Source of the DNA: Dehalococcoidia bacterium UBA1123
Lineage (GTDB): Bacteria > Chloroflexota > Dehalococcoidia > Lucifugimonadales > UBA1123
Length of the DNA: 61,239 nucleotides
Direction: 5' to 3'
NCBI GenBank assembly: GCA_002313895.1
Contig: DCAW01000079.1
Location: 1-61,239 of the forward strand
Shown here: piece by piece, positions 51,726-56,744 of the stretch
Layout of the letters: each line of letters begins with the position of its first letter
How positions within the stretch are numbered: the stretch's first letter is position 1
Notes under the pieces: model-generated
Databases searched by the model: none
Told to the model about the DNA's origin: nothing
Seen by the model: only the letters and a program-made list of their open reading frames with translations
Translations under genes and position numbers: made by a program

Positions 51726-52343
51726 ATGATTCGATTGTTGTCGACGAAACTTCGCGATTCGGCCCATTATGTAAATCGCGAACGCTCAACAAACCAGCAT
51801 ACCCTCAAGGCTTCCAAGGCGTCCGTTTTGACATTAGTCCTCGTGTTGATGGCGATGATGGTCGTGGCCTGCAACAGCGCGCCAGATGTGCATCTTGCGC
51901 GGGGACGAAGCATAGAAATTCAGGTGAGCAGGCCTGTGGTCAAGACCAAAATGTCATTTCTCGATGATGAAGGAAAGCATCGTGTCGTGCGTCCCAGAGC
52001 GTCAAATCGCCAGCTTGCGATGGTCGAAATCGCTGTTGTGAACCGCACAAGCACGGTCATGCCTTTATTGATTGACGAAGAAGCTGCAGAACTTGGTGAC
52101 AGGCGCGGCGAACGCATCGAGGCGCTCGATCCGTTCGTTAATTCCCGTGTAGTTGAGGCGGCTGGTCCTAAAGAGGATGAGTTTGCTCCGTTGCTCTGGG
52201 GCGAAGTTCAATTGGACAGAGATTTCCAGGTGAAGGGGTGGATGATTTTCGACGTTCCAAAAGGTCTCACACTGGGCTCGGTATTCTGGAACGAGATTGA
52301 AGAGATCATCGCTGACTATGTTAACTATTTCGATCGCGGTTAA
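51726..52343 (+). CDS. Putative lipoprotein, DUF4352-like
   Basis: Signal peptide plus lipobox VVAC. The beta-rich C-terminus with ...GWMIFDVPKG is reminiscent of DUF4352, by recollection. Confidence 0.5.
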   Translation: MIRLLSTKLRDSAHYVNRERSTNQHTLKASKASVLTLVLVLMAMMVVACNSAPDVHLARGRSIEIQVSRPVVKTKMSFLDDEGKHRVVRPRASNRQLAMVEIAVVNRTSTVMPLLIDEEAAELGDRRGERIEALDPFVNSRVVEAAGPKEDEFAPLLWGEVQLDRDFQVKGWMIFDVPKGLTLGSVFWNEIEEIIADYVNYFDRG

Positions 52344-52951: not shown

Positions 52952-53049
52952 GGGAGCGGATGGGGCCTGGTGGCTCCTGCGGTCTTCAACACCGTTGGCG
53001 GCAACCCTGCGGTTGGCGCGGTGGGTTCGACTCCCTCTCGCTCCCGCCA
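52952..53049 (+). tRNA. selC: tRNA-Sec (anticodon UCA), CCA encoded
   Basis: Hand-folded 98-nt tRNA. It has an 8-bp acceptor GGGAGCGG/UCGCUCCC (the last pair is G.U) and a 6-bp D stem GGGGCC/GGCUCC with the 4-nt loop UGGU. The anticodon arm is GCGGU-CUUCAAC-ACCGU (UCA). A long variable arm (CGGCAACC-CUGC-GGUUGGCG), T loop UUCGACU, discriminator G and CCA complete it. The layout parallels E. coli selC. The tracked ORFs 52911..53141 and 52970..53182 are spurious. Confidence 0.85.
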
Positions 53050-53412: not shown

Positions 53413-53697
53413 ATGGCGAATCTGATATCCAACGATCCTAGAGAGATAGTGGCAGAACATCTCGAAACGCTCAGAGCATATGCCACTAAAGTCCTGGTCA
53501 ACGACGAGCAGCTAACCGAGGAAGAATTGGCTGATAAGGCTGACCGATTTGAGGAGCTTCAGACGCTGTGCGCTTCCTTCGACGTTACTGAGAAAGAGAT
53601 TGTCACCCTTGTCCTGAAACAGATGATGCGTGAACCGAAGAGATGCGGTTGTCCAACCTGCCTCGCGCGAAAGGGGTTTAGTGACGGAAAAGCTTAA
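53413..53697 (+). CDS. Hypothetical acidic helical protein with a C-terminal Cys cluster
   Basis: 94 aa. ATG is preceded by GGAGGAG. The C-terminal KRCGCPTCLARKG has C-x-C-x2-C. No family recognised. Confidence 0.5.
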   Translation: MANLISNDPREIVAEHLETLRAYATKVLVNDEQLTEEELADKADRFEELQTLCASFDVTEKEIVTLVLKQMMREPKRCGCPTCLARKGFSDGKA

Positions 53698-53857
53698 ATC
53701 GGATTACCCTGGTTCTCGCGGTCACGATATTGCTGTGGAACAGTAGCGACGTAGGACGGATCGGCCTTGCAGCCGAATGAATATATCGTTCGTATGAGTC
53801 ACGCGTTGCGTGAGTGGCAAAATGTCTGGGCGGAAACGATCAGGCGGGCCACAGAAT

Positions 53858-53897
53858 AACTGAATAGAGGCGGCAATTCTGCCGCCTCTATTCAGTT
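53858..53897. terminator. Perfect 18-bp inverted repeat between convergent genes (bidirectional terminator candidate)
   Basis: AACTGAATAGAGGCGGCA-ATTC-TGCCGCCTCTATTCAGTT lies between the 53413..53697 (+) gene and the UGSC gene (-). Confidence 0.55.
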
Positions 53898-53917
53898 CCG
53901 AGAGCGTTCGTCGAGGA

Positions 53918-54463
53918 TTAGCTCTTCGCCAACAAAATCCTCAGCACATCAGGAGCAGCCTGTGCAGCTTTTTCGCGGATTCCGGCTTCGTCGAGGCTTC
54001 CCAAAGGGTGGGGAAGGACAACGTACGGGTAGTCAGGGATTCCGCCGAGTTTCGCCATCGCGTCTGCGCTCGTTACGAACGGCTCTGTGCAGATTACTGC
54101 GGTGGGAACGTCGCTGCGCTCGAAGGTGATTCCGTCGTGCACACTGCACGACGAGCAGGACCCTCAATCGCCGGAGGAGGTGATGATTACGTCGCACTCC
54201 GCCGCCATCTCCTCAGCCAGGGGAGGTGGGCACGGCCTGGAGGCATTGCCTTTGTTTCGCGCCATAATCGCTTTGAACTCGTATCGATCTGCCAGCACAT
54301 CGCTGATGGCTTCGAGCAACTCCACCGAGTTGCGCTTGCCGTTAGCCAGCAGTCCGATAACCTTGCCATCCAGCGTGTCGGGCCTTTGAGCCACAACTGC
54401 GTGCGCTGGGATGGGTTCTACGGTTGGGTCCAGCACGGCCAACCTGGTTGCGGTCGTCATCAT
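53918..54463 (-). CDS. UGSC-motif selenoprotein (181 aa, Sec at codon 100 encoded by TGA 54164-54166)
   Basis: Tracked ORFs 54164..54463 and 53918..54142 are in the same frame, separated by one TGA plus 7 sense codons. The read-through is ...AECDVIITSSGD-U-GSCSSCSVHDGITFERSDVPTAVICTEPF.... ATG 54463 follows GGGAGG. A SECIS-like hairpin starts 10 nt after the UGA. selC, selA and selD are all in the window. Confidence 0.75.
54133..54153 (-). promoter_or_regulatory. Candidate bacterial SECIS hairpin of the UGSC gene
   Basis: CGUCGUGCA-GUG-UGCACGACG is a perfect 9-bp stem. It starts at +11 after the UGA, with a GU-containing apical loop at about +20 to +24. Confidence 0.6.
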
Positions 54464-54501
54464 CGAACCTCCCTAGAATGATTCAGAAGTCTTCGTGGTT
54501 G

Positions 54502-55524
54502 TTAAAACTGAATCCGTTTCGTGACCGAGCGAGTCCCATTACCCGCGGTCCACAACGGTATTATACTAGAAAACGCTCCGGCTGCGCCGCCTGCAACCAG
54601 CACATTGATATTTTCAGGTTTGGATGCCGTTGAGATCATCTGAGAACTGTCGTCGCTCTCTGGAAGAACCTGACCCTCCGCTCTCCATTCGGCCTCTGTG
54701 CGTTGGGCAAGCTCGAACAACGTCTGTTTCACCTGGTTTTTGGTCCACCCGGCGGCTCTGAAATGTCCGATATGCTCAGGGCAAAGCACGATGTTCAACT
54801 CTCCGTGTCTGGCGCCGATGGCGAACATCCCGTCTCGGAAGCTGTTCAGGATATCCCGCGGCGACTCGCTCTCGTGGTTCGCAACCTGAATCCCCGACAG
54901 CGCAGCGAATATTGTCACCGCGCTTTCGTTTTCGGATAGACCACGCTCGACGTGCAGCGGTTCCCACGGACTCACATTGGTATCCTCGGCCATGCACCAG
55001 GTGTACTTGCCGGGATGGCCCAGAGTTGCCTTGTCGATCTCCCCAGAAGAAGAGCCGGTGGCGTTGATAATTACGAGCCTGATGGCGCGCCCGATGGTAG
55101 CGTTTGCGCGATGGCCCGGGCCGAACACGCTCACGCCGGAGTTGATGCCGATTTCGGAGACCACCGGCCCACCCACTACCATTAGAACCGCCGCGCCCAT
55201 TGTGCTGGCCGTGATCGCGTGGAGATTAAATTCCGGTTCGCACATCGCTTCAACAGCCGTGGCGACGACAGGGAAGTATTCTGGACGACACCCGGCCATC
55301 ACTGCGTTGACCGCGACCTTTTCGGCGGTTATCACGCGTCCTTTCGTTGGCTCGGCGCCGATAACATCGGAGGGCGAACGATGGGCCGCGTCAAGAAACT
55401 CACGCACTAGGTCTTGAGTAGGCGGGACGATTGGAAGACCGTCGGTCCAACCTCGGCCAAAGTAGTCTTCTATAACTTGTGAGGCGTCGTCAAATTCCAG
55501 TATTCGAGATGTCAAGTTGGTCAT
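54502..55524 (-). CDS. Conserved-looking protein of unknown function, upstream operon partner of the UGSC selenoprotein
   Basis: 340-aa ORF with no competing ORF and globular composition. Segments include GRGWTDGLPIVPPT, KVAVNAVMAGCRPEYFP, GPGHRANATIGRAIRL and LGHPGKYTWCMAED. A 38-nt gap separates it from the UGSC start. I cannot assign a family. Confidence 0.7.
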   Translation of the reverse strand: MTNLTSRILEFDDASQVIEDYFGRGWTDGLPIVPPTQDLVREFLDAAHRSPSDVIGAEPTKGRVITAEKVAVNAVMAGCRPEYFPVVATAVEAMCEPEFNLHAITASTMGAAVLMVVGGPVVSEIGINSGVSVFGPGHRANATIGRAIRLVIINATGSSSGEIDKATLGHPGKYTWCMAEDTNVSPWEPLHVERGLSENESAVTIFAALSGIQVANHESESPRDILNSFRDGMFAIGARHGELNIVLCPEHIGHFRAAGWTKNQVKQTLFELAQRTEAEWRAEGQVLPESDDSSQMISTASKPENINVLVAGGAAGAFSSIIPLWTAGNGTRSVTKRIQF

Positions 55525-55749: not shown

Positions 55750-56345
55750 ATGACAGAAAAGCTATCGAGAGTTCAGCCTGTCGACGTTGCCTGAAAGGAC
55801 GGAAAGCCTAAATTAGTTCATCCCAGCGAACAAGAATTTGCCCAGATTCTTGACTTCTATGGTCTGCACTTTGAGTATGAGCCTCGGTCCTTCCCACTTC
55901 GTTGGGATGACGAAAACGACAAGATACTCGAGATGTTCACTCCTGATTTCTACTTGCCAGACGTTGACCTGTACCTCGAACTCACCACGATGAATCAGAG
56001 CCTCGTCACCCACAAAAACCGAAAGATCAGGTTGATGCATGAGCTTTACCCTGAGGTTTCGGTAAGGCTGCTTTACCGCAAGGATTTCCACAGGCTGCTG
56101 GCGAAGTTTGGTTTCGGGCCGTTGATCGAGTCGGGCGTTGAGGGCATCGATCGCGTGCTTCTGACTGAGCGACAGATTAACCAGAAGGTCTAAGAGCTTG
56201 GCAAACGCATATCGCGGGATTACGCCCTGAAACAGCCGGCGCTGGTAGGGGTGCAGCGCGGCATGGTGTGCTTCATGGCAGATCCGATGCGAAAAATGCC
56301 ATTGCAGTTGATGATGGATTTCATGTCGATTTCGGATTACGGTGG
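55750..56345 (+). pseudogene. Remnant of a fusion gene (unknown N-terminal domain plus hypoxanthine phosphoribosyltransferase), with an in-frame TAA and a truncated HPRT domain
   Basis: The frame reads ...LVHPSEQEFAQILDFYGLHFEYEPRSFPL...FTPDFYLPDVDLYLELTT...GIDRVLLTERQINQKV*(TAA 56191-56193)ELGKRISRDY..ALVGVQRGMVCFMADPMRKMPLQLMMDFMSISDYGG. This aligns with the E. coli Hpt N-terminal half (AELGRQITERY...LVGLLRGSFMFMADL...VDFMTASSYG). The PRPP-binding VLIVEDIIDSG region is missing. No canonical start lies between TGA 55792-55794 and LVHPSE. Confidence 0.6.
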
Positions 56346-56744
56346 AATCGGTCTTCCGCACTTGGATGGCCGACATCGACACCGAAGAGGGCAGGCGAAT
56401 GCTGATCGAGCGTTCCCCGTTGACCCATGTTCAAAAAACCGCTTCTGATCGGTCACGGCGCCAACGATCCCAGAGTCAAGCAGGCTTAGTCTGATAAAAT
56501 CGTGGCGACGATGAACGAGAATGGAATCCCAGTCACGTATGCGCTCTACCCGGATGAGGGTCATGGGTTCGCGCGCCCAGAGAATAATCTGTCATTTATG
56601 GCAATTACGGAAGCGTTTCTATCTCGGACTCTGGGAAGACGACTAGAGCCAATTGGCGAAGCGTTTAACGGATCGTCCGTGAGAATCCTCAACGGTGGAG
56701 ACGAAATCCCCGGACTGGATGGCGTTGTGGTTGACTCAGAGTGA
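56346..56744 (+). pseudogene. C-terminal fragment of an S9 (prolyl oligopeptidase family) serine peptidase, frameshifted and with an in-frame TAG
   Basis: ...ESVFRTWMADIDTEEGRRMLIERSPLTHVQK | KKPLLIGHGANDPRVKQA*(TAG 56487-56489)SDKIVATMNENGIPVTYALYPDEGHGFARPENN... covers only the Asp/His end of the catalytic triad. The frameshift is at the A6 run 56433-56438. There is no propeller or Ser region. Confidence 0.6.

Follow-up and report, generated by a model that had tools for sequence, protein, structure and literature searches.

In proline reductase and the glycine reductase systems (Prd and Grd), the gene for a small selenocysteine (Sec)-containing subunit with a U-x-x-C(-x-x-C) motif lies next to that of a larger subunit, which is not a selenoprotein and which holds the substrate, as in the PrdA/PrdB, GrdE/GrdB, GrdG/GrdF and GrdI/GrdH pairs, and GrdB itself carries the UxxCxxC form of the motif (PMC13188914). 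Another selenoprotein family, UGSC, was represented in the GOS data by 255 Sec and 21 Cys sequences from 37 samples and is abundant in oxic waters (PMC2398784); its function is listed as unknown both in that 2008 paper and in a May 2026 review (PMC13188914). Hyphomonas neptunium is also reported to carry UGSC (PMC1976440). Here we describe a UGSC gene and its partner in a 61,239-nt stretch of DNA from Dehalococcoidia bacterium UBA1123 (contig DCAW01000079.1, positions 1 to 61,239; hereafter the window), where the selenoprotein gene directly follows the gene of a 340-amino-acid (aa) protein, here termed X, from a large unnamed family. We propose that X and UGSC are the two subunits of one selenol/thiol-dependent reductase that operates by PrdA/PrdB-like logic and is built as one chain in many organisms, and we assign this reading a probability of roughly 60%.

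Both genes of the pair are located on the minus strand. The ATG of the X gene (54502..55524) is preceded by GGAGG, and the gene is followed, after a 38-nt spacer (54464..54501) that carries a GGGAGG Shine-Dalgarno sequence, by the UGSC gene (53918..54463), which comprises 181 codons including Sec100 and ends with a stop codon at 53918-53920. The in-frame TGA at 54164..54166 is codon 100 and provides the U of the GD-U-GSC motif within the segment SSGD-U-GSC-SSC-SVHD. The closest relatives of the window are SAR202/Dehalococcoidia metagenome-assembled genomes (MAGs), with X identities of up to 91% (L023). An earlier note on this DNA had described the 340-aa open reading frame (ORF) with its conserved motifs, the 38-nt gap between co-directional genes and a Shine-Dalgarno sequence for each, and had placed X outside the named families, and it is borne out on all of these points. 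Indeed, X has no match in Pfam-A, NCBIfam or the PDB sequences, whether searched alone, as a profile or through 75 family members, and no Pfam or NCBIfam model matched these 75 members consistently.

The same note had called the module undescribed. This seems to hold for the X-UGSC module, but not for UGSC, which received its family name in 2007-2008 and for which a ‘UGSC/Unknown_1’ fusion was mentioned in 2008 (PMC2398784); the identity of Unknown_1 with X is unconfirmed, and the supplementary sequences of that paper contain none of the X motifs searched for. The literature mentioning UGSC holds no description of the partner X, and nothing relevant was found in the literature on SAR202 and selenocysteine. 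Relative to the literature on UGSC and to Pfam/NCBIfam, the elements that seem to be new are the module itself with its near-obligate pairing, the fact that the X family is both large and anonymous, the partners of X with a thioredoxin (Trx) fold or a ferredoxin:thioredoxin reductase (FTR) domain, the Sec-containing single-chain forms and the link to GrdB. The available descriptions of the UGSC family (PF24696, NF041046) likewise mention neither its near-obligate association with X, nor the other partners that X can have, nor the link to GrdB.

Pairing of X and UGSC across phyla

The window was compared with two sets of related loci, namely 76 loci with X homologs from species-representative genomes (41-91% identity) and 80 further loci (39-57% identity) from an X-profile scan of metagenomes from soils, sediments, fresh water and sea water. 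X and UGSC are both present on the same strand in 138 of these 156 loci. Within the genome set, all 74 evaluable loci have UGSC as the immediate same-strand neighbour of X, the contigs of the other two ending at X; the order is X then UGSC in 71 and is reversed in three (L062, L065 and the betaproteobacterial L076). Within the metagenome set, a same-strand UGSC is found in 64 of 75 evaluable loci, the others being two Trx-fold::X fusions and nine solitary X genes, and five contigs were too short. The spacing from X to UGSC ranges from -3 to 177 nt, with one outlier of ~2.1 kb, and the genes usually overlap or are separated by less than 100 nt.

The linkage extends across phyla. The pair is present in a betaproteobacterial MAG (L076), and in Nonomuraea sediminis (Actinomycetota, L078) the genes for a thioredoxin, an X that is 42% identical to that of the window and a Cys form of UGSC follow one another with stop/start overlap. 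At a further locus, L077, where X is 36% identical, the order is reversed and UGSC is positioned upstream of X. This association goes well beyond what would be expected from shared ancestry. The earlier note had viewed the two genes as a discrete bicistronic unit, a view with which both the conserved synteny and the pairing of Cys-containing UGSC with the same partner agree, the latter in the Nonomuraea operon as well as in six Cys-form UGSC::X chains.

No third conserved gene accompanies the pair. In a Pfam census of 148 ORFs flanking it, no family occurred more than four times, and grdA, grdC, grdD, prdC, prdH and GrdE/PrdA-type (PF09338) families were not found among them, which distinguishes these loci from the Prd and Grd systems. 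Clustering of the genome loci revealed lineage-specific synteny only, involving an hpt fusion, DUF1501/DUF1800-like genes, nifS, agmatinase and speD-like genes. The two genes form a self-contained module that shifts from one context to another.

In the window, the gene for tRNA-Sec (selC; 52952..53049, plus strand) is convergent with the pair and lies 869 nt from the UGSC stop, in agreement with the ~0.9 kb given previously, and a gene for a NifS-type cysteine desulfurase lies just beyond it. Such neighbours could indicate that the pair acts in selenium trafficking, by handling selenide or selenopersulfide for SelD or by recycling Sec. A tRNA-Sec gene is likewise found on the UGSC side in 38 of the 60 related loci scanned, mostly about 0.1-0.8 kb from the UGSC stop and 2.2-4 kb away in six, with NifS just beyond tRNA-Sec in 36 of the 76 related genome loci, and the structural model of X described below yields weak Foldseek matches to SelD/PurM-type proteins (E about 0.1). 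However, the selC/nifS linkage is lost in more distant relatives, where the pair persists, the Nonomuraea operon uses the Cys form, and the window NifS scores as an ordinary NifS (532 bits, cut-off 530.75), reaching only 106 bits with the Sec-lyase model (cut-off 525). We consider a trafficking role to be highly improbable. The adjacency to selC and to a small C-x-C-x2-C ORF that had been pointed out earlier holds in the window and its close relatives but not beyond; selC was rejected as part of the module, since its linkage is lineage-specific (38 of 60 loci), as was the small ORF, which is present in three of the 76 related genome loci.

We note two variations on the layout of the pair. In one lineage, represented by L079 and L080 (1304-5537), ~2.6 kb of insertion sequence elements with rve and HTH_Tnp_1 transposases lie between an X homolog of 53% identity and a UGSC in Cys form (GDCGSCSSY), an arrangement that could represent a disrupted module. 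Tandem copies of the module are seen as U-X-X-U in L133 (73-2964) and as U-X-X in L132 (1711-4447).

Selenocysteine decoding and the relationship to selenoprotein B

The TGA at 54164-54166 is decoded as Sec, as the computational evidence from RNA covariation, together with the presence of selC in the window, demonstrates. A selenocysteine insertion sequence (SECIS)-type hairpin on the minus strand (54133..54153), with a 9-bp stem and a GUG loop, starts 10 nt after the UGA, that is, at the 11th base downstream. When the same 66 nt were aligned from 73 different loci, the inner seven pairs were formed almost always, and in five pairs both partners had changed (33 cells). The observed covariation score was not reached in any of 500 column shuffles, and every slid register scored lower. 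In addition, TGA occupies the Sec position in all 72 complete genome loci and in all 59 metagenome loci that were checked.

The window protein matches the UGSC models of Pfam (PF24696; E=5e-56, 189.9 bits, cut-off 25) and NCBIfam (NF041046; 144.5 bits, cut-off 125) and contains the defining U-G-S-C motif, so that by these sequence criteria, both curated thresholds being exceeded, it ranks as a full member of the family. The UxxC(xxC) redox motif around Sec takes the form U-G-S-C-S-S-C. The U-x2-C-x2-C motif emphasized in the earlier note is therefore present in the window protein, but it does not stand as a feature of the family, in which the third Cys is variable and is replaced by Gly, Arg, Ser or Trp in many members; the core motif is thus U-G-S-C, and the third Cys is not essential. 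We note that, in stem pair 25-35 of the SECIS, base 1 of codon 106 is paired with base 2 of codon 109, and that residues 106 and 109 co-vary (57 sequences have Cys/His and 14 have Gly/Leu, while Arg/Arg and Ser/Leu occur once each). The third Cys and the following His thus change together via the RNA structure, and these positions clearly exemplify how a recoding signal can constrain the sequence of a protein.

The analogy with glycine and proline reductases that had been drawn earlier now has a basis in sequence. Seventeen of 22 UGSC members match the GrdB model (TIGR01917; best E=4e-6) over the Sec region, and the general selenoprotein-B model is matched by 14, GrdF by 12, GrdH by 10 and PrdB by seven of the same 22, a similarity to the Sec region of these subunits that is weak but consistent. 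Residues 84-165 of the window UGSC, the sole member for which coordinates were shown, align to GrdB positions 331-406; PF07355 was not reported for this protein at E<=0.1. These profile matches identify UGSC as remotely homologous to the selenoprotein-B family (GrdB/PrdB) in the region around Sec.

A structural view of the UGSC domain is provided by the AF2 model of a natural Cys-form fusion with X (P0231, 528 residues), which was obtained with moderate alignment depth at a pLDDT of 83.5 and a pTM of 0.82, the latter suggesting a defined packing of the two domains. In this model, the UGSC domain is predicted to consist of five beta-alpha units, with C-G-S-C at the start of the third helix, and its best PDB matches are flavodoxin-like, with E of only ~1e-2. 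A thioredoxin-like fold, as proposed for UGSC in 2008 (PMC2398784), is not supported by this predicted architecture.

Protein X and its interchangeable redox partners

An exhaustive search of 1.84 billion representative proteins, with clusters counted at 50% identity, identified 5199 X-related clusters at a threshold of E<=1e-3, of which 1254 also reach E<=1e-30. The conserved segments of the family are WTDGLPVVPPT, NAVMAG-C79, FGPGxRANATIGRA and KYTx-C177-xAE, and the near-invariant residues include D28-G-L-P31, P34-P35, N73, G78-C79, R139-A-N141, R146, C177, E180 and W187. G78 is invariant, and C79 and C177 are the only two near-invariant Cys residues. Pyruvoyl-dependent enzymes generate their N-terminal pyruvoyl group through self-cleavage at a conserved Ser or Cys, for which C79, next to G78, might be a candidate.

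Fusions of X to UGSC or to other redox domains, surveyed among the best 150 of the X-related clusters, occur in many lineages. Six are full-length UGSC::X chains in which Cys replaces Sec. Proteins of 414-453 aa represent the corresponding Sec forms, since 12 of 12 tested representatives start with the post-Sec half of UGSC and are gene calls that begin after the in-frame TGA; L167 confirms such a Sec fusion, where MNAS...GIGD-TGA-GSCVSWSVHD... reads straight into X. Elsewhere the domain in front of X is of the AhpC/TSA-Redoxin or Trx-like type, with CxxC or CxxS (P0161, P0165, P0177, P0205, P0239 and P0248); weaker Trx-like matches are seen in P0251 and P0195, and also in L147 and L158. In P0230, X is fused to an FTR catalytic beta domain (PF02943, E=2e-21), and a gene for Sec-UGSC is situated directly upstream. 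Tandem X-X chains of about 710-740 aa (P0124, P0132) were also found. Because X is often fused to a Trx-fold or FTR domain where UGSC is missing, X is the constant component and the chalcogen or redox partner varies.

Several features of these partners are of note. A layout with three modules is seen in L082-L084 (L082: 970-2935), where a presumed Sec-UGSC gene, split by gene calling into segments of 91 aa and 83 aa that flank the in-frame stop at the Sec position, is directly followed by an FTR catalytic domain::X gene, which suggests a ferredoxin-driven version of the system. The Trx-fold::X fusions share a linker motif, PGC(G/A)(S/A)(K/R), ~30-40 residues ahead of the X domain, that resembles D-U-G-S-C, and its Cys may stand in for Sec100; for L085, L147 and L158, the flank available on these short contigs (35-240 nt downstream of X) contains no UGSC gene. 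An extension of ~70-100 aa with the motif A-C-A-x-C-(V/L)-x-P is attached to UGSC in Nonomuraea (C-terminus of P0285; L078, 5001-5774) and to the N-terminus of X in P0146; by eye it resembles Nfu/NifU-C, and P0146 gave no Pfam match. In the high-GC X subfamily (FExWFEKGVTDGLPVVPPT…GRYTYCI; L123, L137, L142, L145, L146, L151 and L153), X is solitary, since the flanking sequence at hand (about 0.6-5 kb) contains neither UGSC nor a Trx-fold partner, and often lies near a gene for a cold-shock protein or DEAD-box helicase; a redox partner, if any, must act in trans.

The AF2 model of X has a pLDDT of 96.5 and a pTM of 0.94 and appears to have no close solved relative. Its best Foldseek matches in the PDB, which come from two distant organisms, are class I Fe-S fumarate hydratases, aligned over the whole chain with E=2e-4 and a probability of 0.85-0.94, but with TM-scores of only 0.27-0.31 and an rmsd of 16 Å; the next are Toblerone-fold cyclic amide hydrolases, followed by PrpD/IRG1, all of them weak. 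X could thus be viewed as an enzyme with an Fe-S cluster or another metal site and with a distant resemblance to the class I fumarate/tartrate hydro-lyase alpha subunit (PF05681), which also pairs with a small beta subunit as two chains or one, with UGSC or the Cys of the PGCGS linker supplying a missing ligand or maintaining a cluster, and with chemistry that is possibly non-redox (hydration/dehydration or desulfuration). Two near-invariant Cys residues are one short of a three-Cys cluster site, and a Cys or Sec comes with every partner. One of these partners, FTR-beta, is an Fe-S module in its own right, and the possible Nfu-like extension with its CxxC may be another. On the other hand, the TM-score of about 0.3 is accompanied by no profile similarity: hhalign of X against a profile of TtdA and the M. 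jannaschii and L. major enzymes returned probabilities of 0.1-0.2% (0.1% for the fumarate hydratase profile), and the cluster-ligand motifs CQDTG, ACPP and C(W/S)A (CWA), present in TtdA and the two fumarate hydratases, are absent from X. The match to the class I fumarate hydratases is accordingly taken as a weak fold resemblance, and most partner domains are classical disulfide reductases that fit electron delivery better than ligand donation. We regard a metal enzyme of this type as unlikely.

The range of partners also bears on which of the two proteins is the effector. UGSC might be a working antioxidant or repair protein, such as a selenol peroxidase or an S-/Se-oxide reductase, that X recycles, docks or regulates. 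A self-contained module in variable genomic contexts is typical of stress-protection genes, and such a role would also suit a protein that is abundant in oxic waters and nearly always in its Sec form, both in the GOS sequences and at all positions checked here, each of which is TGA. X, however, occurs without UGSC, fused to Trx-fold or FTR domains, so that the chalcogen partner is replaceable and X is constant, and X has many invariant polar residues, as expected of an active site. A principal role for UGSC, with X as its accessory, therefore appears quite doubtful.

We favour the reading in which X and UGSC make up one thiol/selenol-driven enzyme with X binding the substrate, because X is constant with interchangeable disulfide-reductase partners, because UGSC shares ancestry with GrdB/PrdB and because operons with the orders trx-X-UGSC and UGSC-FTR::X exist. 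One catalytic domain that is served by interchangeable disulfide-reductase modules, as neighbours or fusions, is also a property of thioredoxin-dependent reductases such as the methionine sulfoxide reductase-Trx fusions and the clients of ferredoxin:thioredoxin reductase; X differs in belonging to none of those families and in having no close solved structure. We infer a physical X-UGSC complex, a direction of electron flow, roles for Cys and Sec and a reductive chemistry, as follows. X would be the substrate-binding or catalytic part, with a pocket lined by C79, C177, R139, R146 and conserved Asp, Asn and Glu residues, and, as a guess from the conserved Arg residues, its substrate might be a small anionic metabolite. 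UGSC, as a flavodoxin-like alpha/beta domain, would present Sec100 at a helix start as the nucleophile that attacks the X-bound substrate, and Cys103 of U-G-S-C would resolve the adduct to a selenenylsulfide. By analogy with the Prd and Grd systems, where the reductant is a thiol or thioredoxin, the selenenylsulfide may be re-reduced by thioredoxin-type proteins, or by ferredoxin via the FTR-like domain. In lineages that lack UGSC, the Trx-fold domain fused to X, together with the linker Cys of PGCG(S/A), could do the same job.

Five observations weigh against such a reductase. UGSC falls far below the selenoprotein-B cut-offs, with 21.3 bits for TIGR01917 (cut-off 602) and 15.6 bits for TIGR01918 (cut-off 65.45), and is thus a remote relative rather than a member; unlike the Sec subunits of Prd and Grd, it is only about 180 aa long. 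Family profile searches found no similarity between X and the pyruvoyl subunits GrdE and PrdA, which are made as proproteins, so that for X the Grd/Prd analogy is one of function and not of homology. Thioredoxin is not a regular neighbour among the flanking ORFs of the pair. The nine solitary X genes in the metagenome set have no redox partner within about 0.6-5 kb. Lastly, the hosts are largely aerobes, mostly marine and soil bacteria, unlike the Stickland fermenters that carry the classical reductases. A further difference from those systems is that the module is often a single fused chain. No solved Prd or Grd structure was found for a comparison of folds. We propose that X-UGSC belongs with the two-subunit reductases of the selenoprotein-B type but has a catalytic subunit that is not homologous to theirs.

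The near-constant association of UGSC with one partner would turn the question of its function into a defined biochemical target, which consists of two genes or one natural fusion, with thioredoxin as the obvious reductant to supply; the all-Cys operon of a cultured actinomycete would sidestep the problem of Sec expression. If correct, the proposed reductase would carry selenium chemistry of the PrdB/GrdB type beyond the anaerobic fermenters and into aerobic SAR202, Actinomycetota and Proteobacteria. It would also name, and place in context, a very large family of ‘hypothetical proteins’ (at least 5199 clusters, absent from Pfam/NCBIfam). A bolder proposal, which we put forward tentatively and think is probably wrong in some part, is that X-UGSC is a widespread, uncharacterised selenoenzyme of aerobic marine and soil bacteria with a catalytic subunit of new fold, in which Sec attack leads to a Stickland-like reductive cleavage (of C-N, C-S or similar bonds) driven by thioredoxin or ferredoxin. 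Such an aerobic Stickland-like enzyme would provide a biochemical role for one of the most abundant selenoprotein families of the ocean and would constitute a new enzyme class.

Other features of the window

Downstream of the pair, in the gap that separates UGSC from the convergent 94-aa ORF discussed below, the 18-bp perfect inverted repeat reported earlier was found again (53858..53897; arms 53858-53875 and 53880-53897), with arms that are 100% complementary and a 4-nt loop. It is probably a bidirectional terminator; a simple promoter/terminator scan, which was uninformative, did not flag it. On the other side, ~228 nt of non-coding DNA (given earlier as about 225 bp) separate the X start from a divergent pseudogene on the plus strand (55753-56352). 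It is a homolog of an hpt fusion, contains two in-frame stops and loses similarity at around residue 201 of 302. Its intact counterpart, a conserved SAR202 gene of 302 aa in L001, combines an N-terminal domain of unknown type with hypoxanthine phosphoribosyltransferase. Next comes what is left of an S9 prolyl-oligopeptidase, a C-terminal remnant of 80 aa (56502-56744, plus strand). The decay noted on this side is therefore real, but the accessory locus that it had been taken to suggest is not supported, since the neighbourhood is one of conserved housekeeping synteny in SAR202.

Two further ORFs on the plus strand lie on the UGSC side of the pair. Directly after nifS, an ORF of 205 aa (51726-52343) encodes a protein with a lipoprotein-like N-terminus (…MVVAC…) and no Pfam or NCBIfam match, and is kept in 37 of 76 related loci. 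The 94-aa ORF (53413-53697) ends in CGCPTC and has no family match; homologs with a CGCPTCRAR ending between UGSC and selC were found only in L023 (86% identity), in L002 (30%) and, split over two frames, in L003, and it is a real gene with a narrow distribution.

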